Sequence record: MN153797.1
Length of the DNA stretch: 48,822 bases
Origin: Tunavirus T1
Direction: 5' to 3' (one strand)
Positions 4,418 to 42,863 of this stretch are shown one piece after another. Every line of letters starts with the position of its first letter. Position 1 is the stretch's first letter. Below the pieces are notes generated by a model. The model made no database searches. It was not told the DNA's origin and was given only the letters and a program-made list of their open reading frames with translations. Made by a program: the position numbers and the translations under genes.

Positions 4418-4864
4418 ATGAAACACTTAATCTGCATTGAAGCGCCTAACGATCAATACACCCTGCATGGACTTGGTGTGTTCAAAGGTCACTACATTAC
4501 CGCAGGAACTTACGATGCTCGTCGCGGCGATGGCGACCTAATGATTACGTCAAAAGAAGTAAATCCGTACATCATGCAGAATCTTGGCAATAACGAATAT
4601 ATGGCCTATGGCTGCAACGCGGTGTACAAGCACGTTAAGATCCGCAAGCGTGTTGTGCGTGCATTCAAGAAGATTGCAATTAAATACTGGAAAATGAGCA
4701 AGAAAGATGCCGGACGTTGGGCGCGCAACGTTGCAGATTCATACTTCTATCGTAACGGCGAATCCTGCTACTTCCTGATCGATGAACTTATGGAAAACTA
4801 CGGTGGCGACTTCAGCCAGGGTAGCTTTGATGACTGGGCCAACTATGAGATCAGTTGCTGGTAA
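4418..4864 (+). CDS. hypothetical protein
   Basis: ORF track; RBS gaggaag. Confidence 0.5.
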   Translation: MKHLICIEAPNDQYTLHGLGVFKGHYITAGTYDARRGDGDLMITSKEVNPYIMQNLGNNEYMAYGCNAVYKHVKIRKRVVRAFKKIAIKYWKMSKKDAGRWARNVADSYFYRNGESCYFLIDELMENYGGDFSQGSFDDWANYEISCW

Positions 4865-8321: not shown

Positions 8322-8342
8322 CCCGCTCCGGCGGGTTTTTTT
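8322..8342 (+). terminator. Rho-independent terminator
   Basis: Hairpin cccgc-tccg-gcggg followed by T7 run. Confidence 0.65.
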
Positions 8343-8354
8343 ATGCCTGCAATA

Positions 8355-8377
8355 TGGTAAAATAGCACTAAATGTTA
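8355..8377 (+). promoter_or_regulatory. Extended -10 promoter (TGg-TAAAAT, 8355-8363) with box tagcactaaatgtta (8363-8377) over the predicted start site
   Basis: Read directly; precedes terminase small subunit gene. Confidence 0.45.
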
Positions 8378-8395
8378 AACAAAGAGGATGTATTT

Positions 8396-15060: not shown

Positions 15061-15089
15061 TTTGACGCTTTAACAAAAAGTGCTATTAT
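15061..15089 (+). promoter_or_regulatory. Sigma70-like promoter (TTTGAC, 17 bp, TATTAT) with box taacaaaaagtgcta inside the spacer
   Basis: Read directly; box at 15071-15085. Confidence 0.45.
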
Positions 15090-15139: not shown

Positions 15140-16099
15140 ATGACTACTAAAAAATTTGATGAAGCAGATAAAAGCAATGTTGAAATGTATCTGATCCAGG
15201 CTGGCGTAAAACAGGATGCGGCCGCAACGATGGGTATCTGGACCGCTCAGGAACTACACCGCATCAAAAGCCAGTCCTATGAAGAAGACTACCCGGTCGG
15301 CTCAGCTTTACGCGTATTCCCGGTTACAACCGAGCTTTCTCCGACCGACAAGACGTTTGAGTATATGACCTTTGATAAGGTTGGTACGGCTCAGATTATC
15401 GCAGACTACACCGACGATCTTCCGCTGGTTGATGCCCTGGGTACTTCTGAATTTGGCAAGGTGTTCCGTCTTGGTAACGCGTACCTGATCTCAATCGACG
15501 AAATCAAAGCGGGTCAGGCAACTGGTCGCCCACTGTCAACCCGTAAGGCGAGTGCGTGCCAGTTGGCGCATGATCAGCTTGTTAACCGCCTGGTGTTCAA
15601 AGGTTCCGCGCCGCACAAGATTGTGTCCGTGTTCAACCATCCGAATATCACCAAAATTACCTCTGGTAAGTGGATTGATGTATCTACTATGAAGCCGGAA
15701 ACTGCGGAAGCTGAGCTAACTCAAGCGATCGAAACCATCGAGACGATTACTCGTGGTCAGCACCGCGCAACCAACATCCTGATCCCGCCTTCCATGCGTA
15801 AGGTTTTGGCGATTCGTATGCCTGAGACAACCATGTCTTACCTGGACTATTTTAAGTCTCAGAACTCCGGTATCGAAATCGACTCTATCGCAGAGCTTGA
15901 GGATATTGACGGCGCAGGCACCAAAGGCGTACTGGTGTACGAAAAGAATCCGATGAACATGTCCATCGAGATCCCGGAAGCATTTAACATGCTGCCAGCA
16001 CAACCGAAAGACTTGCACTTTAAAGTGCCTTGCACCTCTAAGTGTACTGGTCTTACAATTTATCGCCCGATGACTATTGTCTTAATCACTGGCGTGTAA
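15140..16099 (+). CDS. major capsid protein
   Basis: 319-aa ORF in canonical position with strong RBS ggagaag; followed by a strong terminator. Confidence 0.65.
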   Translation: MTTKKFDEADKSNVEMYLIQAGVKQDAAATMGIWTAQELHRIKSQSYEEDYPVGSALRVFPVTTELSPTDKTFEYMTFDKVGTAQIIADYTDDLPLVDALGTSEFGKVFRLGNAYLISIDEIKAGQATGRPLSTRKASACQLAHDQLVNRLVFKGSAPHKIVSVFNHPNITKITSGKWIDVSTMKPETAEAELTQAIETIETITRGQHRATNILIPPSMRKVLAIRMPETTMSYLDYFKSQNSGIEIDSIAELEDIDGAGTKGVLVYEKNPMNMSIEIPEAFNMLPAQPKDLHFKVPCTSKCTGLTIYRPMTIVLITGV

Positions 16100-16106
16100 T
16101 ATTATA

Positions 16107-18758: not shown

Positions 18759-18770
18759 ATACCATCCACA

Positions 18771-18790
18771 GGGGGCTTGCACCCCCTTAT
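18771..18790 (+). terminator. Possible terminator
   Basis: Hairpin ggggg-cttgca-ccccc then T-rich tract. Confidence 0.4.
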
Positions 18791-18834
18791 TCATTTCTGT
18801 AAAATCATCTTATCAACTTTATTCGATTAACTTT

Positions 18835-18849
18835 TAACAAAAAGTGCTA
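18835..18849. promoter_or_regulatory. TAGCA-N5-TGCTA box (taacaaaaagtgcta) about 22 bp upstream of the chaperone gene start
   Basis: Read directly; too close to ATG for the standard promoter geometry. Confidence 0.4.
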
Positions 18850-18871
18850 TCAACCAATCAGGAGAAACATC

Positions 18872-19547: not shown

Positions 19548-22421
19548 ATGGTTGATAAGGTAGCAGGTCTATCTCTTGACGTTGACGTGTCAACAGTTCA
19601 GCGCGCTGTCAAGTCACTGAAAGAGTTTTCAAAGGCCAACGATCAGGCCGCTGATTCTATGGGTTCTTTAATCAATGAGTCAGAGGTTGCAAAACAGAAG
19701 GCCAAAGAACACGCCGAACAACTCAGGCGCCAGAGAAAAGAGTATGAGGCCGTGGAGAAGGCAATCGATCCTACAGTATCAAAAATGGAAAGGTTGAAGA
19801 TTGCATCTCAGCAGCTTGATAAACTCTGGCAGCAGGGAGTCGTTCCAGATGAGACTTTTTTCCGTTTGGGTGAAATGCTGGATCTGCAAAACGCAAAACT
19901 TGCTCGCAGCCGGGCCATGCTGACAGAAGAAGGGCAGGCAGCATTGCAAGAGGCGAAAGCAAAAGAGCAGGCGGCAGTGCGTAGCAAGGCGTTCATGGAT
20001 GCCCTGAATGGTCAAGTTAACGCGATCGGTAAGACTCATGCTGAATTGATGGAACTGAAAGCGGCTGAGCTTGGTTTATCGAAAGAAGCAGAACCACTAA
20101 TCGCAAAACTTAAAGATCAAGGCCGGGCTATGAATGCAGCAGGTATTAGCGCCGGGGAATACAGACAGGCAATGCGAATGCTTCCTGCGCAGATCACAGA
20201 TGTCGTAACATCTCTTGCATCCGGTATGCCAGTATGGATGGTTGCTATCCAACAGGGCGGTCAGATTAAGGATTCGTTCGGCGGGATCGGTAACACGTTT
20301 AAAGTGTTGCTGAGTTATATTAATCCGGTCACGGCAGGTGTTGGCGTTCTTGTTGGTTCGTTAGGTATTCTAGCGAAAGCTGGTTATGACTCTTACAAAT
20401 CAATAACTGATATTCAGAATGCGCTTATTGAGACTGGAGGTTATGCAGGTGTTACGGCTGAAGAGCTTGATTCAGTGTCTAAAAAGATCGCGCAGACAAG
20501 CAACTCAACCATTGGGAGTATTCGCGAGATTGTAACGGAGTTGGCGAGTTCTGGTAAGTACACCCGCGAGCAGATCCAGAACATCACTAAGGCTACCGCA
20601 GAGTGGTCAGCGTCAACAGGAAAATCAGCAAGTCAAATTATTTCTGAGTTCGAAAAAATAGCAAGCGATCCGGTAAAAGGACTGAAGAAGTTAAACGAGC
20701 AATATAATTTCCTTGAAAAAGGGCAGCTTACCTATATCGATACATTAAGCCGGACGAAAGGAGAAACTGAGGCTGTATCAGAGGCTACAAAACTATTCGC
20801 AGACGTAATGGAAAAGCGAATGAAGTCGATCGCGGATAACGCTACTCCTCTGGAAAAGATGTGGAGCGATATTAAACAATGGGCTTCGGACGCGTGGGGA
20901 TGGGTTGGTGATCATACACTCGGGGCACTAAACCTGATTATCGACGTTGTTCAGGGTACAGTGATTCAGGTTAAAATGATTCTTGCGAAGGGTGATGAAT
21001 ACATCTCAAACTTTATCGCCTCAGCCATAAAGGCAACTCAGTCACTGCCTGGAATGAGTGACTTCGGCGCTGATGTACTGAAGGAGCAGGAGAATATTGT
21101 AAAAAGTTCTCGCGACAACTACGATCAGTTAGCTTCAGATCTTGACGCTATTAACGCTCGTGTAGAAAAAAGCGAGATGGGATACATTGAAGCAATGAGG
21201 CAGCGCCGCACCCTTGAAAAGCAGTACAGTGAGGAAACTAAGGAGGCAATAAGGAAAGAAGCAGAAGAGATCGAGAAGCGAAACCGAGAACGAAATAAGC
21301 AGTCGAAAATTGTACGATCACCGACAGAGCAATTCGACAAGGAGTTAATTTCACTCAGGGCTCAACTTAAGGTATTGCAGGAGCATAAGGAGATCGGTCA
21401 AAAACTATCAGCACAGAGAAAGGCGCTGTTTACAACTGAGGCTACGATCGCTGTTCTTCGCGAAGCTAGTTCTAAGCGCCAGTTGTCTGCGGAAGAAAAA
21501 GCGTTGCTGGCAAGTCAGGAGAGAGTTATTGAGCTTGCGAAACAGAAGGCCGAGATTGGCGATCAGATTGTTAAGCAACAGCAGTTGAATGATCTTACCG
21601 ATAAATCTCTGAAGTTTGTCAATGAGATGACGGCGGCGACGGAACAGTTTAACGCGTCACGCGGTCTTAGTACTCGCGACATGGAACGACAAGCTGAACT
21701 AGCTAAAATCACCACTGATTACATCAACTCCGGCGGCAGCGAAGGAGACGAGAAACTTCAGAACATGATTAAGGCGCAAAATGATTACTACGCTGCGGAA
21801 GATGCCAAGCGAGCTGACTGGTTGGCAGGTGCTGAAAGTGCTTTTGCTGATTACGGTGATGCAGCAATGGATATGTACGGCAATGTTAACGAGATCGCGT
21901 CAAGTGCCCTTAACGGAATGTCAGATATGATGGTTCAATTTCTGACCACAGGAAAAGCGAACTTTGAGGACTTTGCGAAAAATATCATCGGCATGATTAT
22001 AAAGATGATTGCTCAGATGGTAATCTTCAATACGATCTCAGGCATGATGGGCGGTAAGACGTGGAGCTTTGCTGGAGGGGCGTCGTCTGGTGCTTCTGCG
22101 GCATCACAGGCAACCACTACACCTGCTGCTTCTGTTTTTAGATCTGTATCTTCCGGCGGGGCCGCTGTATCACTTGCTGCCGCAGCGGGTAGCGTGGCAA
22201 CCTCTGGATTCAACGCATCAAACTCGGCGCCAAAGGTGGTAAACCATTCAGGAGGTGGAACGGTCGTTGACGTTAGCGGAATGGAGGTGAAAGTTGACAA
22301 CGGTTCAGATCCGAGGGGGATTTCTCAGGGCGTGGAAATGATGTTCAAAAAAATGATTCGTGAGTCTTGTTCGCAGGGCGGCGAGGTTTATAATTACATT
22401 CAGGAAAAAACAGGAGGCTAA
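19548..22421 (+). CDS. tail tape measure protein
   Basis: About 958 aa, coiled-coil rich, Gly/Ala/Ser-rich C-terminal region; G8 tract at 19536-19543 directly upstream of ATG. Confidence 0.8.
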
Positions 22422-22423
22422 TA

Positions 22424-22777
22424 ATGGCGACACTTGACACTTTTGGTTGGTGTACGCAGGTTCAAGGGGGCGGTGGCTCCCTTACCACTACCAACAGCGA
22501 CCGCTCTATTCAGTTCGGTAACGGGTACATGCAACTTGCATCATCTGGATTTAACACCACGCGGCGTGAATATTCAGTCGTCTATGCCGGGGAAGATTTC
22601 ATGGCTGTTTACGACTTCTGCAACTCTCACCGCATTAAGCCGTTCGCATGGACGCCGCCGGACGGTAAGATCGGGATATGGGTAGTAAAGCCTAACAGTT
22701 TGGGAGCGAAGCCAGTATCGCGCGACGTGATGGAGATTAACGTCACGTTTATGGAGCAATTTACATCTATGGAGTAA
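22424..22777 (+). CDS. minor tail protein (lambda M-like)
   Basis: 117 aa directly after tape measure; conserved gene order. Confidence 0.65.
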   Translation: MATLDTFGWCTQVQGGGGSLTTTNSDRSIQFGNGYMQLASSGFNTTRREYSVVYAGEDFMAVYDFCNSHRIKPFAWTPPDGKIGIWVVKPNSLGAKPVSRDVMEINVTFMEQFTSME

Positions 22778-22792
22778 CGCCATATAACAAAA

Positions 22793-22815
22793 GCCCGCCT
22801 TGCGCGGGTTTTTTT
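22793..22815 (+). terminator. Rho-independent terminator (copy 1 of duplicated cassette)
   Basis: gcccgc-cttgc-gcggg then T7. Confidence 0.65.
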
Positions 22816-22828
22816 GTAGCTGTAGAAT
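22800..22828 (+). promoter_or_regulatory. Sigma70-like promoter overlapping the terminator (TTGCGC, 17 bp, TAGAAT)
   Basis: -35 sits in terminator loop; -10 at 22823-22828. Confidence 0.45.
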
Positions 22829-22856
22829 GGTTGCAGGTAAACAAGAGGAAAAATCA

Positions 22857-23639
22857 ATGAGCGAAAACAAAAAACTTTATGATGAAGAAAGCGGAAAGAG
22901 CCTGTTTCACAACTGCCTTCAATCACTATATCCGGGAGAGATAATCACTCTCATCGAAGTTGATGGTAGTAAGTTCGGCGCTCAGGTGTACCGATTCCAC
23001 GGTGAGAATATCCAGTACACTCCAGAAGAAATCATGCAGGCCCAGCAAACTGGAACGCTACCGCCGAAGGAAATTACATTCCGTGGCGAGAAATACGGGG
23101 CGCGACCGTTCGGTATATCCGGGATCTCGTTTGACAGTTCCGGGAAGGCAACAAAACCACAATTAACGGTGGCAAACATTGATAGTCGCGTATCTGCGAT
23201 GATTCGTGCATATAACGGACTAATGCAAGCTAAGGTGACTATCTGGATAACTCAGCGTGAGCTTATTAACTCCGATGGCTCAATCGCTGATGGAGCTTAC
23301 CGTAAACTGGTATACTATATCGAGCGTCCGAACTATGTTGATAAAAGCGTTGCGCGGTTCGATCTCACATCACCTTACGATATGGACGGCATAATGATCC
23401 CGTCTCGACTCACGCAAAGCGTATGCTATTTTGCACAACGAGGGTGGTATAAAACAGGGAAAGGCTGCGGATACAACGGGCAAAATGGTTACTTCGATAA
23501 AGACAATAATCCTGTAGACGATCCGTCGCTGGATTTTTGCCCGGGAACGGTAACGGCCTGCCGCCTGAGATTCGGCGCAAACAATGAATTGGATTTTGGC
23601 GGTTGCGCTGTCGCTTCATTACAGAGGAAAAATCAATGA
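22857..23639 (+). CDS. minor tail protein (lambda L-like) with C-terminal Cys cluster
   Basis: ATG 22857 with RBS agaggaa; four spaced cysteines in C-terminal region. Confidence 0.7.
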   Translation: MSENKKLYDEESGKSLFHNCLQSLYPGEIITLIEVDGSKFGAQVYRFHGENIQYTPEEIMQAQQTGTLPPKEITFRGEKYGARPFGISGISFDSSGKATKPQLTVANIDSRVSAMIRAYNGLMQAKVTIWITQRELINSDGSIADGAYRKLVYYIERPNYVDKSVARFDLTSPYDMDGIMIPSRLTQSVCYFAQRGWYKTGKGCGYNGQNGYFDKDNNPVDDPSLDFCPGTVTACRLRFGANNELDFGGCAVASLQRKNQ

Positions 23640-24370
23640 TTAGTGCAAAAATTAAACTTGAAATTATGACTCACGCTCAGGAAGAATACCCCCGCGAATG
23701 CTGCGGGGTAGTCACCCAAAAGGGCCGCGTGCAAAAATACCATCGCATTGATAATGTGCATCGTGATCCCGAGAATCATTTCATGATGGATGCTGTACAA
23801 TACGCTTGCATTGAGGACGATGCGGAATCAACAACAATAGCAATTGTTCACAGCCACACAGGAGACGGGGCTACAACTCTACCAAGCGCTCACGATACGT
23901 GCATGTGCAACGAGATGGAAGTTACCTGGATTATTGTTAGCGTGCCGGAAGGGGATATGCGATTTGTGAAGCCGGAGAAATTGCCTCTGATTGGTCGTCC
24001 GTGGTCATTAGGATCATTCGACTGTTACGGTCTTGTTATGGCGTGGCACAAAGAGCACGGCGTAGAATTGCGCGATCGCCGATTGAATTTTGAATGGTGG
24101 AAACCTGAGTACGGAATTAATCTCTATCAGGATTATTACAAGCAGGATGGCTTCGTTGAGATTCCAGATCAGAATAATCCGTCATTCGGTGATATGGTAA
24201 TCATGCAGATAGGGCAAAACGTTCCGGTATGGAACCATGCAGGGATTTACCTGGGAGATAATCAGATCTTGCATCATGCCTTCGGCAAGCTATCTCGTCG
24301 TGATATTTATTCCGGATGGTATCAGGATCATACTGTTTTAATCGTTCGCCATAAGGATCTTAAATTATGA
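23636..24370 (+). CDS. tail assembly protein (lambda K-like; MPN/JAMM plus NlpC/P60-like)
   Basis: Motifs IVHSHTGDGA and FDCYGLVMAWH; start overlaps L stop (ATGA). Confidence 0.7.
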   Translation: MISAKIKLEIMTHAQEEYPRECCGVVTQKGRVQKYHRIDNVHRDPENHFMMDAVQYACIEDDAESTTIAIVHSHTGDGATTLPSAHDTCMCNEMEVTWIIVSVPEGDMRFVKPEKLPLIGRPWSLGSFDCYGLVMAWHKEHGVELRDRRLNFEWWKPEYGINLYQDYYKQDGFVEIPDQNNPSFGDMVIMQIGQNVPVWNHAGIYLGDNQILHHAFGKLSRRDIYSGWYQDHTVLIVRHKDLKL

Positions 24371-24966
24371 ATGATGTAAAAGTAATTAAATTGTCAGGTT
24401 CACTTGGGAGACGCTTCGGCGTCTTTCACCGTTACGCTGTTGACTCTTACCCGGAAGCCATACGGGCGCTATCCAGTCAGGTTGACGGATTTAAAGAATA
24501 CATGCAAAGCGAGGTAGGATCTCGTAGCAAGTTTGCAATATTTGTGGATGGCGTTAACGTGGGACACCATGAAGAGGAAAAATTCAAGTGCGCGAAAGAG
24601 ATAAGAATCGTACCGATCCCTACTGGCTCTAAGACAGGAGGTCTATTTCAGGTTGTATTGGGCGCGGCAATAATGGTTGCAGCATTCTATACTGGCGGCG
24701 CGTCTCTGGCTTTAATGGGCACAATGTCCTCGTCTCTGTTTATGATGGGCGGCGCTATGGTGCTGGGCGGCGTGATGCAGATGATTTCACCGCAGCCGGG
24801 TGGCGCAAACTTTGAAGTTCAATCAAGCAAGAATAAACCTTCGTACGCGTTCGGCGGTGCTGTCAATACGACGGCGGCGGGATACCCTCTCCCGGTCCCG
24901 TATGGATATCGCGCCGGAGGTGGGGCAACTTTCTCAGCAGGTTCTTATGCCGAGGATATGAGTTAA
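24367..24966 (+). CDS. tail assembly protein (lambda I-like)
   Basis: Gly/Ala-rich hydrophobic C-terminal half; gene order. Confidence 0.6.
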   Translation: MNDVKVIKLSGSLGRRFGVFHRYAVDSYPEAIRALSSQVDGFKEYMQSEVGSRSKFAIFVDGVNVGHHEEEKFKCAKEIRIVPIPTGSKTGGLFQVVLGAAIMVAAFYTGGASLALMGTMSSSLFMMGGAMVLGGVMQMISPQPGGANFEVQSSKNKPSYAFGGAVNTTAAGYPLPVPYGYRAGGGATFSAGSYAEDMS

Positions 24967-24972
24967 AATTAA

Positions 24973-24995
24973 CCCGCCTTGCGCGGGTTTTTTTT
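24973..24995 (+). terminator. Rho-independent terminator (copy 2 of duplicated cassette)
   Basis: cccgc-cttgc-gcggg then T8. Confidence 0.65.
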
Positions 24996-25007
24996 CGCCT
25001 GTATAAT
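24979..25007 (+). promoter_or_regulatory. Sigma70-like promoter overlapping the terminator (TTGCGC, 17 bp, TATAAT)
   Basis: -10 TATAAT at 25002-25007. Confidence 0.5.
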
Positions 25008-25043
25008 GAGTCCACCGATAAATAGCACAAAAAGGTAAACATC

Positions 25044-28000
25044 ATGATTCAAAAAGTGATAAGCGGATCTAAAGGTGGGTCACAGAAGCCTCATAACCCA
25101 GTTGAGATGGAGGACAATCTAATCTCAATCAACAAAATCAAGATCCTGTTAGCTGTATCTGATGGTGAAATTGACGAAACATTCAGCCTGAAGCAGTTGA
25201 TGTTTAACTCAGTCCCGGTGCAAAACGAGGATGGCTCATTTAACTTCGAGGGAGTAAAGGCAGAGTTCAGACCTGGGACGCAGACTCAGGAATATATCAA
25301 GGGAATGGAAGATAGCTCTAGTGAGGTAACTGTAAATCGTGAGGTTACTACCGATAACCCATACACAATCTCAGTAACCAACAAAACGCTGTCGGCAATC
25401 CGTATCAAAATGTTCATGCCTCGCGGCGTACGAATTGAAAGTAACGGTGATAAAAATGGCGTAAGAGTTGAGTATGAGGTGCAACAAGCTGTTGATGGCG
25501 GCTCGTTTGAGACGGTGCTCACCGATGTAATCGAAGGCAAAACAATGTCAGGTTACGATCGGAGCAGACGTGTAAACCTACCTAACTTCAACAATCAGGT
25601 GATATTCAGAGTGGTTCGGAAAACTCCAGACTCTAACGACTCGAACGTTGTTGACGCGATTCAGGTAAAGAGCTATGCCGAGGTGATTGATGCCAAATTC
25701 CGTTATCCGCTGACTGGTCTTCTTTTTGTCGAGTTTGATTCGAAGATGTTCCCAAACCAGTTACCTACGATCTCAATTCGTAAGCGCTGGAAGATTGTAA
25801 ACGTTCCGTCAAACTATGATCCAGAATCACGAACTTATAACGGAAATTGGGATGGAACTTTTAAGAAGGCATGGACGAATAATCCGGCCTGGGTGCTTTA
25901 TGACCTGATGATTAATCAGCGTTATGGCTTGGATCAGAAAGAGCTTGGTATCGCTGTAGATAAATGGGCGCTCTACGAGGCTGCGCAATATTGCGATCAG
26001 ATGGTTCCTGATGGGAAGGGCGGGACGGAACCTCGATACCTTTGCGACGTGATAATCCAGTCTCAGACTGACGCTTACAAGGTTATCCGAGATATTTGCT
26101 CAATCTTTCGTGGTATGAGCTTTTGGAATGGTGAGAGCATTTCGGTAATCATCGACAGGCCGCGTGAACCTGCGTACATCTTCACTAACGACAACGTTGT
26201 TAATGGTGACTTCTCCTACACGTTCGCAAGCGAAAAGAGCATGTACACGACGTGTAATGTGATGTTTGATGATGAACAAAACATGTATCAGCAGGACGTT
26301 GAGCCAGTATTCGATCGTGAGGCTACTCTACGGTTTGGGAACAACGTTACGAGCATTACAGCGATCGGTTGCACACGTCGAAGCGAGGCCAACCGACGCG
26401 GGAGATGGATTCTGAAAACTAACCTCCGCAGCACTACGGTAAACTTCGCTACCGGGCTTGAGGGCATGATCCCGACAATCGGAGATGTTGTGGCAATAGC
26501 TGATAACTTCTGGTCAAGTAACTTGACAATGAACCTGTCAGGGCGTTTGCTCGAAGTGTCTGGAAGTCAGATTTTCTTGCCGTTCCGGGTGGATGCACGC
26601 GCTGGTGACTTTATTATCGTAAATAAGCCAGATGGCAAGCCTGTGAAGCGCACAATCTCAAGTGTTAGTGCGGATGGTAAGACTATAGAGGTTAACATTG
26701 GCTTTGGCTTTCCTGTGAAGCCTAACACGGTATTCGCTATCGACCGCACCGACATTGCGTTACAGCAGTACGTCGTGACAAAAATCGATAAGGGCGATGA
26801 TGATGAGGAATTTACCTACAAAATAACGGCGGTGGAGTACGATCCTAACAAGTATGATGAGATTGATTACGGAGTTAACATCGACGACCGACCGACGAGC
26901 ATCGTTGAACCAGATCAGATCCCTAGACCGAAAAATGTGCAAGTATCCTCAGAGTCGAGAATCGTCCAGGGGATGAGCGTAGAAACGATGATTGTTAGCT
27001 GGGATAAAGTTCCGTACGCTGTTTTCTATGACGTCCAGTGGCGAAAGGATAACGGCAACTGGCAAAATGTACCGCAGACAGCAAACAAAGAGGTATACGT
27101 TGAAGGTATTTACGCTGGCAACTATCAGGTTCGCGTTCGCTCAGTCGCTGGTTCGGGCACGACTTCAGGCTGGTCAAATATCGTCGCGGCAACGTTGACG
27201 GGTAAACAGGGTGAACCGGGCCGACCGATTAACCTCACAGCTACGGATGATGTTGTTTTTGGTATCCGTACAAAATGGGGGTTCTCTGATGGTTCTGGAG
27301 ATACAGCCTATACAGAGTTGCAACAGTCACCGGATGGAACAGTGGATAACGCAAGTTTGCTTTCTTTGATTCCGTATCCGCAGCATGAGTATTATCACTC
27401 ACCAATGCCTGGAGGGAATATTGTTTGGTATCGGGTAAGGATGGTTGACAGGATCGGTAACGTGTCTCAGTGGACTGATTTTGTCAGAGGTATGGCATCA
27501 ACAAACGTTGACGATATCATTGGGGAGATTTCTGTTGATATCGAAAACTCACCTGGTTACGAGTGGCTTGTTGATAACGCAACAGACAACGCGGCGCAGA
27601 ACTCAGCTAACGCAGAGGCAGCAATAGAAAACGCGCTCGCCAATGACAAAGACGCGATCTACATGAAGAAGGAGAACGGAAAACGAAAAGCTGAGTACAC
27701 GAAATCACTGAAACTTATTGCTGATGAGACGCAGGCACGAGTGACGGCGATCGAGCAATTGAAGGCAAGTTTTGGCGATCAGATTAGCGCTAGCAACAGC
27801 GAGCTGCGTGAGGTTATCGCAACCGAGACTGAAGCACTATCGCGTGAGATTGACCAGCTTAAGGCTCAGATTGGTGACGATATTCAGGCAAGTCTGACTG
27901 ATATTCGGGAGGTTATCGCAACCGAGACTGAAGCACTATCGCGTGAGATTGACCAGCTTAAGGCTCAGATTGGTGACGATATTCAGGCAAGTCTGACTGA

Positions 28001-28562
28001 TATTCGGGAGGCTATCGCGAACGAGACTGAGGCTAGAACGCAAGCTGACTTAACACTTAGCGCGCGGCTTGGAAATAACGAGGCGGCACTTGCTCAAAAA
28101 CTAGACTCGTGGAGTAACGCGGATTCTACTGGTGCAATGTACGGTGTCAAGTTGGGTCTGAAATACAACGGCCAGGAATACAGTGCAGGCATGGCTATGT
28201 CTCTAGTTGGTTCCGGAGCTGCGGTTAAGGCGCAGATTTTGTTTGAGGCGTCACGATTTGCCATCATGACTGGAATGAATGGTCAGACTCAGTACCCCTT
28301 CGTTGTTGAGAATGGTCAGGTTATTTTAAGTAGCGCGATTATCAAGAACGGATTCATCACCAACGCAATGATTGGAAACTTCATCCAGTCGAATAACTAT
28401 GTATTTAACCAGTCCGGATGGAGGCTTGACAAGGGTGGAACATTCGAAAATTGCGGAAGTGACGGTGAGGGTGCAATGAAGCAAACTAATACCACAATAT
28501 CTGTTAGGGATGCGAGTGGTCGCCTGAGGGTTCAGATTGGCAGGTTGACTGGCTCATGGTAA
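25044..28562 (+). CDS. central tail fiber / host specificity protein (lambda J-like)
   Basis: 1172-aa ORF after M-L-K-I block; contains in-frame 99-bp tandem repeat. Confidence 0.8.
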   Translation: MIQKVISGSKGGSQKPHNPVEMEDNLISINKIKILLAVSDGEIDETFSLKQLMFNSVPVQNEDGSFNFEGVKAEFRPGTQTQEYIKGMEDSSSEVTVNREVTTDNPYTISVTNKTLSAIRIKMFMPRGVRIESNGDKNGVRVEYEVQQAVDGGSFETVLTDVIEGKTMSGYDRSRRVNLPNFNNQVIFRVVRKTPDSNDSNVVDAIQVKSYAEVIDAKFRYPLTGLLFVEFDSKMFPNQLPTISIRKRWKIVNVPSNYDPESRTYNGNWDGTFKKAWTNNPAWVLYDLMINQRYGLDQKELGIAVDKWALYEAAQYCDQMVPDGKGGTEPRYLCDVIIQSQTDAYKVIRDICSIFRGMSFWNGESISVIIDRPREPAYIFTNDNVVNGDFSYTFASEKSMYTTCNVMFDDEQNMYQQDVEPVFDREATLRFGNNVTSITAIGCTRRSEANRRGRWILKTNLRSTTVNFATGLEGMIPTIGDVVAIADNFWSSNLTMNLSGRLLEVSGSQIFLPFRVDARAGDFIIVNKPDGKPVKRTISSVSADGKTIEVNIGFGFPVKPNTVFAIDRTDIALQQYVVTKIDKGDDDEEFTYKITAVEYDPNKYDEIDYGVNIDDRPTSIVEPDQIPRPKNVQVSSESRIVQGMSVETMIVSWDKVPYAVFYDVQWRKDNGNWQNVPQTANKEVYVEGIYAGNYQVRVRSVAGSGTTSGWSNIVAATLTGKQGEPGRPINLTATDDVVFGIRTKWGFSDGSGDTAYTELQQSPDGTVDNASLLSLIPYPQHEYYHSPMPGGNIVWYRVRMVDRIGNVSQWTDFVRGMASTNVDDIIGEISVDIENSPGYEWLVDNATDNAAQNSANAEAAIENALANDKDAIYMKKENGKRKAEYTKSLKLIADETQARVTAIEQLKASFGDQISASNSELREVIATETEALSREIDQLKAQIGDDIQASLTDIREVIATETEALSREIDQLKAQIGDDIQASLTDIREAIANETEARTQADLTLSARLGNNEAALAQKLDSWSNADSTGAMYGVKLGLKYNGQEYSAGMAMSLVGSGAAVKAQILFEASRFAIMTGMNGQTQYPFVVENGQVILSSAIIKNGFITNAMIGNFIQSNNYVFNQSGWRLDKGGTFENCGSDGEGAMKQTNTTISVRDASGRLRVQIGRLTGSW
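27811..28008 (+). repeat. Perfect 99-bp tandem duplication (2 copies plus a diverged partial third) inside the J-like gene
   Basis: Unit aggttatcgcaaccgagactgaagcactatcgcgtgagattgaccagcttaaggctcagattggtgacgatattcaggcaagtctgactgatattcggg repeats at 27811 and 27910; encodes the same 33-aa segment twice. Confidence 0.85.
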
Positions 28563-28568
28563 TATCAA

Positions 28569-42745: not shown

Positions 42746-42863
42746 CAATAGCATTCATCACCTTACAGGCTGGCATGATTTACATGCTGGCCTTTTTGCG
42801 TTGTGTCAAATAAATTTGAAGGTTAAAATCTACTCACTTGTTCAAAAAATATATGGTGAGATT

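Follow-up and report, generated by a model that had tools for sequence, protein, structure and literature searches.

Intrinsic terminators overlapped by putative sigma70 promoters at tail gene junctions of phage T1 and its relatives

The sequence analysed here (the window) is a 48,822-nt stretch of Tunavirus T1 (record MN153797.1), which carries two near-identical short segments, referred to below as cassettes 1 and 2, within its tail gene module. Megablast analysis of the region 22400-25100 identified it as DNA of Escherichia phage T1 (100% identity over the full length with AY216660, NC_005833 and MK213796), and more than 130 other Drexlerviridae records were matched in the same search. All positions are those of the window, which in this region equal the record coordinate plus 1. 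Pfam analysis assigned the neighbouring genes to M (Phage_min_tail), L (Phage_tail_L), K (JAB plus NlpC/P60), I (Lambda_tail_I) and J (with tip-attachment domains). Cassette 1 occupies the M-L junction and cassette 2 the I-J junction. The pair brackets L-K-I, with M located upstream of cassette 1; the title of the initial annotation, in which M-L-K-I is flanked, was incorrect in this respect, although its text placed both copies at the correct junctions. The features of the two cassettes and of an adjoining direct repeat are as follows:

22794-22815, + strand: terminator of cassette 1 (M-L); hairpin CCCGC-CTTGC-GCGGG at 22794-22808, T7 at 22809-22815
22800-22828, + strand: promoter-like sequence of cassette 1; -35 TTGCGC at 22800-22805, 17-nt spacer, -10 TAGAAT at 22823-22828
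A 22835, + strand: predicted start of cassette 1, with a predicted leader of 22 nt
22843-22859, + strand: ribosome-binding site (RBS) AAGAGGA (22843-22849) and ATG (22857) of gene L; the RBS lies within the predicted leader
24973-24995, + strand: terminator of cassette 2 (I-J); hairpin CCCGC-CTTGC-GCGGG at 24973-24987, T8 at 24988-24995
24979-25007, + strand: promoter-like sequence of cassette 2; -35 TTGCGC at 24979-24984, 17-nt spacer, -10 TATAAT at 25002-25007
A 25014, + strand: predicted start of cassette 2, with a predicted leader of 30 nt; J ATG at 25044
25020-25040, + strand: copy of a 21-nt direct repeat (AAATAGCACAAAAAGGTAAAC), placed 3' of the predicted start and 5' of the ATG of J; its AAGG is also the RBS of J

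Both hairpins are intergenic and lie on the coding strand, beginning 16 nt past the stop codon of M (site 1) and 6 nt past that of I (site 2). In cassette 1 the -35 TTGCGC falls in the hairpin loop and the 3' arm, and the 17-nt spacer contains the T run. The cassettes share an exact 22-mer, CCCGCCTTGCGCGGGTTTTTTT (22794-22815 and 24973-24994), which has no further match in the window even when 3 mismatches are allowed, and had 0 matches in 100 shuffles. A repeat search of the region 18-29.7 kb returned as its top direct repeat a 45-nt pair with 80% identity (22785-22829 and 24964-25008). The initial annotation had described such a pair, each copy with a hairpin, a T run and an overlapping TTGCGC-17-TAGAAT/TATAAT; the sequence readout bears this out, except that the repeat core begins at 22794 and not at 22793. 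Both predicted starts are located approximately 7 nt past the -10 sequence, on an A, and give a leader with an RBS. The translation-initiation regions of L and K (22843-22863 and 23622-23642) also resemble each other, having 17 bases in common (AGAGGAAAAATCAATGA) that cover the RBS, the spacer and the start codon.

Both hairpins are annotated as "terminator, rho-independent" in AY216660 and NC_005833, i.e. in the original and the 2023 re-annotated T1 records. With their A/U extensions they fold at -12.8 to -14 kcal/mol (z about -2.5 versus shuffles), while the GC core by itself (5 G-C pairs, 5-nt loop) reaches -7.8 kcal/mol. At both sites the U-rich tract (T7, T8) directly abuts the stem, with no gap. 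Few T1 terminators have weaker cores, yet none has better U runs, which suggests that the hairpins give real but partial termination. No Rfam family matched anywhere in the window at gathering thresholds, so no known RNA family explains the repeats.

The comparison was extended to approximately 130 loci of T1-like phages (Drexlerviridae), 80 around homologues of L and 53 around the major tail protein; individual loci are cited below by three-digit numbers preceded by L. Around the L homologues (63-100% protein identity), genes M, L, K, I and J were placed by tblastn and both junctions were then extracted. Every clade keeps a hairpin and a T run at M-L and I-J through different stem sequences (CCCGCC, GCCGCC, CCCCGC, GCCCGCC, GCGCCC, GCCTCC and others). 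All clade representatives fold at -11 to -23 kcal/mol over 45 nt, the stems differing but always pairing; hairpin conservation was judged by folding per clade, stem and loop lengths varying among clades. We regard it as very probable that both cassettes are terminators. One T1-clade contig (L010, I-J junction, ~4620-4660) has lost the hairpin, other sequence standing in place of its 3' arm (CCCGCTCCGCATTCATTTTTTTT), but retains the T run and TATAAT; it is either a natural variant without the terminator or the product of faulty assembly.

As regards the promoter half, the -10 sequences match TATAAT at 5/6 (TAGAAT, cassette 1) and 6/6 positions (cassette 2). A rough position weight matrix (PWM) ranked I-J 13th and M-L 21st among 487,870 candidates in the genome, the ranks being heuristic only. 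The bare pattern TTG-N20-TANAAT occurs 8 times in the window (2.9 expected; 0 of 100 shuffles reached 8), and three of these matches are the cassettes at M-L, at I-J and at a third junction, V-G (described below). Because the bare pattern is only mildly unusual, the evidential weight lies in its conservation and not in its occurrence.

At I-J, all 19 clade representatives carry the hairpin and the T run followed by TATAAT (15) or TACAAT (4), and in 16 of the 19 the sequence TTG(C/T)G(C/G) is located exactly 17 nt upstream of the hexamer. At M-L, a hexamer with a match of at least 5/6 (TACAAT, TATAAT, TATGAT, TAGAAT or GATAAT) is present in 17/20 representatives, most of which have TTG, or TTTACG, 17 nt upstream, and nine representatives carry a canonical extended -10 sequence (TGnTAYAAT). 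The TTG at its fixed spacing is retained in most clades, but has been lost in some (L028, L054 and the L056 group at I-J). The spacer is predominantly 17 nt long, rarely 16 or 18 nt, and never outside 16-18 nt. The stretch between the T run and the hexamer is variable, as are the 10-12 nt past the hexamer. Within the T1 clade the promoter-like site of cassette 1 is invariant while its flanks vary, and TAnAAT together with its 17-nt distance to the loop TTG is kept in lineages whose L proteins are only 63-77% identical.

In order to avoid circularity, the sequences were also anchored on the loop TTG alone. The set comprised 106 distinct sequences and covered three types of junction; its columns +23 to +28 are occupied by T (92%), A (93%), n, A (86%), A (91%) and T (87%), and the adjacent columns are far less constrained. 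Such a profile is that of conserved sigma70 -10 elements separated from the -35 by 17 nt.

As a negative control we used the GT-H terminator (between chaperone G/GT and the tape-measure gene; 19508), which belongs to the same operon and whose hairpin and T run are equally conserved. Hexamers were counted in distinct hairpin-bearing sequences, with a -10-like sequence defined as a match of at least 5/6 within 26 nt past the hairpin:

M-L: 52 hairpin-bearing sequences, 49 with the hexamer, 25 of these with TTG at 17 nt
I-J: 52 hairpin-bearing sequences, 51 with the hexamer, 33 of these with TTG at 17 nt
V-G: 38 hairpin-bearing sequences, 31 with the hexamer, 29 of these with TTG at 17 nt
GT-H (control): 28 hairpin-bearing sequences, 8 with the hexamer, 0 of these with TTG at 17 nt

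The loops of the GT-H control are variable and have no conserved TTG; its RBS follows directly 3' of the terminator, with no conserved hexamer.

The V-G cassette, located between the genes of the major tail protein and the tape-measure chaperone, was exposed by the rough PWM scan. A weaker related cassette lies in front of terS:

18770-18805, + strand: third cassette (V-G); hairpin AGGGGG-CTTGCA-CCCCCT with a degenerate T run
18777-18805, + strand: promoter-like part of the third cassette; -35 TTGCAC at 18777-18782, 17 nt, -10 TAAAAT at 18800-18805
8322-8380, + strand: weaker cassette before terS; hairpin CCCGC-TCCG-GCGGG, T7, hexamer CAATAT at 8350-8355, forward direct repeat at 8359-8380

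Across the 53 loci around the major tail protein, TTG is found 17 nt upstream in 33/40 distinct V-G sequences with a hexamer call, the hexamers being mostly TAAAAT, TAATAT, TAGAAT, TACAAT and TATAAT. In the T1 clade the T run of this cassette has decayed (TTATTCATTTC), whereas no such decay affects the TTG, the spacing or the hexamer. Since V-G (in the T1 clade) and I-J of L010 lose terminator features and keep the hexamer, the promoter part is under selection of its own, separate from that on the terminator. The pre-terS hexamer is less well conserved (TAATAT, GAGTAT and TATAAT in three divergent relatives, with few divergent loci available from the TerS-based scan), and its direct repeat sits directly before the RBS. 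The pair at M-L and I-J is not special, but part of a set of at least three cassettes (V-G, M-L and I-J) plus the weaker one before terS.

Terminators followed by promoter-like sequences were also seen elsewhere in the window, in an arrangement with the -35 outside the hairpin. Before the holin gene (42768-42829, + strand) and after the primase terminator (34945-34911, - strand), TTG-N20-TAAAAT (42801 and 34939, respectively) occurs just downstream, within a few nt of the terminator; these are two further matches among the eight counted above. An antisense match in the 3' part of J (28150-28123, - strand; TTGACA-16-TAGAAT, 11/12) tied for the best rough score in the genome, and no minus-strand gene is annotated downstream of it.

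Taken together, we consider it probable, though by no means certain, that the cassettes combine a terminator with an active promoter. The terminator half of the reading given in the initial annotation agrees with the T1 records, and its sigma70-like promoter half draws strong support from the comparison of relatives.

Several observations weigh against an active promoter. No promoter is annotated at 22800-22828 or 24979-25007 in either T1 record, the PePPER-based re-annotation of T1 calls none at the M-L and I-J sites, and the analysis of phage TLS, which was deliberately strict, lists none at either junction (PMC11447400 Table S1). Our literature search found no transcriptome, start-site or termination study of T1 or T1-like phages. 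The -35 TTGCGC matches the TTGACA consensus at 3/6 positions only (TTG), for which reason a consensus promoter scan listed neither site, and the TG in front of the T1 hexamers occupies -14/-13, a shift of one base from the canonical extended -10 position. An extended -10 reading was accordingly discarded for T1, where no base separates the TG from the hexamer (cTGTAGAAT, cTGTATAAT); for relatives this reading is valid. At M-L, L048, L051 and L053 have no hexamer, their T run leading straight into the RBS or into an inserted open reading frame (ORF), i.e. the M-L hexamer is dispensable in these three loci. The low strength of the hairpin cores also belongs here. Moreover, the compared sequences are related by descent and are not independent samples, and the fixed 17 nt may partly reflect a simple absence of insertions and deletions in a short segment of common descent: the segment containing the T run has no net change in length beyond 16-18 nt, and most T-run differences can be boundary substitutions, for which reason an initial reading as compensated insertions and deletions was dropped.

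Some of these points favour the view that the cassettes are terminators or attenuators only, the hairpins attenuating read-through and protecting the 3' ends of upstream mRNAs, and TAnAAT being kept for a reason at the RNA level (an AU-rich leader, an RNase E site or a translation enhancer). The terminators are indeed the sole features curated at the M-L and I-J sites, the -35 is weak and without a call in the consensus scan, and the hairpins of lambda and N15 at I-J (in N15 also at V-G), which have no promoter, indicate that a terminator alone is viable there. We nevertheless consider this view unlikely. The near fixation of hexamer positions 1, 2 and 6, with position 3 free, and the 17 nt to the loop TTG fit sigma70 and not an AU-rich RNA site; the hexamer outlasts a degraded terminator (V-G of the T1 clade, I-J of L010); relatives carry the canonical TGnTAYAAT; and the GT-H control, which directly precedes an RBS, has no such element.

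The direct repeat adjacent to some of the cassettes provides the basis for another interpretation. T1 contains 18 copies of this 21-nt sequence (aaATAGCACnnnTTGnTAAAA). The copy at 25020-25040, conserved at I-J in most clades, corresponds to DR8 of phage TLS, which follows terminator T49; T46 and T49 are the TLS equivalents of the two T1 terminators (PMC11447400 Table S1). The repeat is in forward orientation at I-J and terS and inverted after the V-G hexamer (18831-18850), and the M-L cassette has none. Stoperator, enhancer and UP-like roles have been suggested for such repeats (PMC11447400), and we speculate that the copies at I-J and V-G might be a putative operator. Two other roles were rejected: the repeat cannot be the -35 of the cassette promoters, as it lies downstream of the -10 at I-J, terS and V-G, and inspection by eye for a sigma54 promoter (TGGCAC-N5-TTGC) revealed AG in place of the invariant GG and a spacing 2 nt too short. 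Copies in the early region (including 1450, 2269, 3535, 4864, 6531 and 39962 on the + strand and 47619 on the - strand) follow the pattern ATAGCAC-N3-TTGnTAAAA, with a hairpin bearing TATAGT or a similar hexamer in its loop ~19-22 nt downstream; the centre of the repeat lies at about -42 relative to this -10-like hexamer, where activator or operator sites are typically found. At the M-L junction of phage Rogue1 (L158, 19330-19375) the distance from the repeat to TACAAT is also 22 nt.

The hexamer, with or without the repeat, could be a site where a phage factor, or sigma70 in elongation, binds or pauses, with the effect of regulating read-through of the terminator and not of creating a new start. 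Sequences resembling -10 elements are known as sigma70-dependent pause signals in lambdoid late operons, and the conserved repeat stands right after the I-J and terS hexamers (inverted after that of V-G). Such a role is very improbable here, since the hexamer is downstream of the terminator, so that termination would already have been decided by the time it is transcribed, sigma70-dependent pausing requires a promoter close by on the upstream side, no antiterminator is annotated in T1, and the M-L cassette does without the repeat. The layout of lambda-type Q antitermination, with a Q-like antiterminator gene, a qut site and a promoter-proximal pause ahead of the terminator, does not fit either, the -10-like element being downstream and not upstream of the terminator.

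At M-L, the real promoter might instead be TTTACA-17-TATAAC (22763-22791), just upstream of the hairpin, the downstream hexamer being incidental. In the close relative SA32RD (OL960578) a promoter is annotated at the corresponding place, immediately in front of the terminator, and similar promoter-before-terminator matches occur in T1 at 15062, 16077 and 28537. This candidate, however, has a -10 ending in C and not T; it has been lost within the T1 clade (L008 and L012-L014 read ...CTCATGAC or ...TTCATGAC) and is absent in other clades, whereas the hexamer past the hairpin does not vary in the T1 clade and is widely retained outside it, which leaves this explanation with hardly any probability. 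Of the matches directly upstream of late terminators, 15062-15089 and 16077-16105 lie before and after the major capsid gene and 28537-28565 after J, and a start from any of them would land in the 5' arm of the hairpin; the 15062 site is an annotated T1 promoter and overlaps an inverted direct repeat (15066-15086).

The near-identity of the two T1 cassettes probably arose within the T1 lineage. The usual M-L type among the clades is GCCGCC-TTTGT-GCGGC T6 ATTGgTGc TAYAAT, and the usual I-J type CCCGCC-TTGC-GCGGG T6-8 nnGyCYG TATAAT. Within one genome, the identity between the M-L and I-J cassettes is highest in T1 (0.85, versus 0.53-0.78 in most clades). The T1 M-L cassette is more similar to the I-J-type cassettes of several clades (0.85-0.88) than to the M-L cassettes of other clades (at most 0.82), and it has the spacer GTAGCTGTAnAATG in common with I-J of L038; the T1 clade is also distinct in the N-terminus of L. 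These data are best explained by a replacement of the M-L junction by an I-J-type cassette in the T1 lineage, so that the near-identity would reflect copying from the I-J type. That the repeat is a neutral relic of duplication or recombination, with no function beyond pre-existing terminators, would be in keeping with such a copying event but is extremely improbable, as the non-identical cassettes of other clades keep the hairpin, T run, spacing and hexamer and so are under selection; for the same reason we judge the terminator-promoter architecture to be older than the event in the T1 clade.

In some relatives the same junctions host extra genes. An HNH endonuclease gene (PF13392, E 2e-24) is located on the opposite strand in the I-J gap of L041/L042 (5041-5544, - strand), the M-L gap of L051 contains an inserted ORF of 169 amino acids with no Pfam hit (2011-2520, + strand), and L053 has an additional segment of ~500 nt between K and I.

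Parts of the architecture have counterparts in known phages. In Rogue1 (vB_EcoS_Rogue1, JQ182736), a promoter with an "extended -10 region" is annotated at 15169-15196, between the major tail protein and chaperone genes (V-G). It resembles the T1 cassettes in having TTCACA in the loop of a GC hairpin and T7 in the spacer, followed by TGtTATAAT, but the record does not label this hairpin a terminator and shows no promoter at M-L or I-J of Rogue1. Its M-L junction is built differently, with the direct repeat, TACAAT 22 nt later and no hairpin.

Lambda and N15 have homologous M-L-K-I-J genes and hairpins at the same junctions: lambda carries an unannotated terminator-like hairpin, CCGCC-TGCG-GGCGG followed by TTTTGTCATTT, in the I-J gap (L156, 2460-2500, corresponding to lambda 15459-15499), and N15 has annotated putative terminators at V-G and I-J (L157, 597-614 and 6308-6331). 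In both phages, however, the RBS and ATG follow directly after the hairpin, so that neither a -10 hexamer nor a leader would fit in between, and genes M and L are adjoining or overlapping, with no gap. The tail operons of lambda and N15 are expressed as a single late transcript by Q antitermination. Hairpins at these junctions therefore predate, or extend beyond, the T1-like phages, and the promoter overlay appears to be specific to Drexlerviridae.

The late region of T1 was described in 2004 by Roberts, Martin and Kropinski (PMID 14972552) as a series of transcriptons, flanked by terminators and provided with RpoD promoters, as summarised in PMC11447400. The initial annotation expressed the same general idea; the overlap with the -35 in the loop and the family-wide conservation are not stated in that summary. 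The authors of the TLS analysis wrote that they cannot definitively state that TLS has transcriptons (PMC11447400). In T1, computationally, L-K-I lies between the terminators at 22794 and 24973 with the promoter-like site 22800-22828 ahead of it, and J between the terminators at 24973 and 28569. A literature search for promoters overlapping terminators found no phage precedent.

According to the combined terminator and promoter reading, the cassettes would act at two levels. In the RNA, the GC hairpin and U run would stop part of the incoming transcription downstream of M (site 1) and of I (site 2). In the DNA, the same 36 bp would be a promoter for host sigma70, with the TTG in the loop, the 3' arm and T run as the 17-bp spacer and TAnAAT next to it. 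Host RNA polymerase would start new transcripts approximately 7 nt later, at A22835 and A25014; as these starts lie downstream of the hairpin, the new RNAs would lack the terminator and carry only a leader of 22-30 nt with an RBS. Together with the cassette at 18770-18805, this would give three tail units (G/GT-H-M, L-K-I and J), all of them with their own start and insulated from upstream read-through. The G/GT-H-M transcript from the V-G promoter would read through the promoter-less GT-H terminator. Such restarts may permit the expression of distal tail genes that lie beyond a series of about nine terminators. The 79 annotated T1 genes include no RNA polymerase, sigma factor or antiterminator (no search aimed at antiterminators was made), and for this reason restart promoters are a plausible substitute for antitermination.

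E. coli RNA polymerase can remain on the DNA once intrinsic termination has taken place, and can then diffuse and initiate anew at a promoter close by, as described in single-molecule observations on engineered templates (PMC6978380, PMC6978322). A promoter overlapping a terminator would offer the shortest possible path for such reinitiation, which we mention only as a possible mode of action. In a bolder and improbable scenario the cassettes are "terminate-and-restart" stations, at which polymerase is recaptured in place by retention on the DNA and rebinding of sigma70, and the direct repeat is an operator through which a phage protein gates the restarts in time. If true, this would be a natural and conserved use of the polymerase recycling so far seen only in single-molecule assays, and it would keep the flux of polymerase down the tail operon while resetting each transcript.

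Both terminators, a general module of terminator and RpoD promoter for T1 (2004) and one homologous overlapping promoter, annotated in Rogue1, were already known. Our analysis adds two specific unannotated putative promoters, an overlap with the -35 in the loop that recurs at three junctions, family-wide conservation assessed against a negative control, and a probable copying event in the T1 clade. These findings should be useful for annotation, although they will not surprise a specialist. The putative cassette promoters are features missing from the current annotations of T1, TLS and most Drexlerviridae. The compact 36-bp design of terminator plus promoter might also be of use as a natural insulator part when synthetic operons are built, and the cassettes offer a possible natural test bed for the recycling of polymerase after termination.

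Although T1 belongs to the classic set of seven T phages, its transcription programme is essentially unmapped. The expression of its distal tail genes is a niche question, posed by a late operon with about nine intrinsic terminators in a phage with no annotated polymerase, sigma factor or antiterminator of its own. Putative promoters within three of these terminators would provide a concrete and testable answer, namely three tail transcription units.

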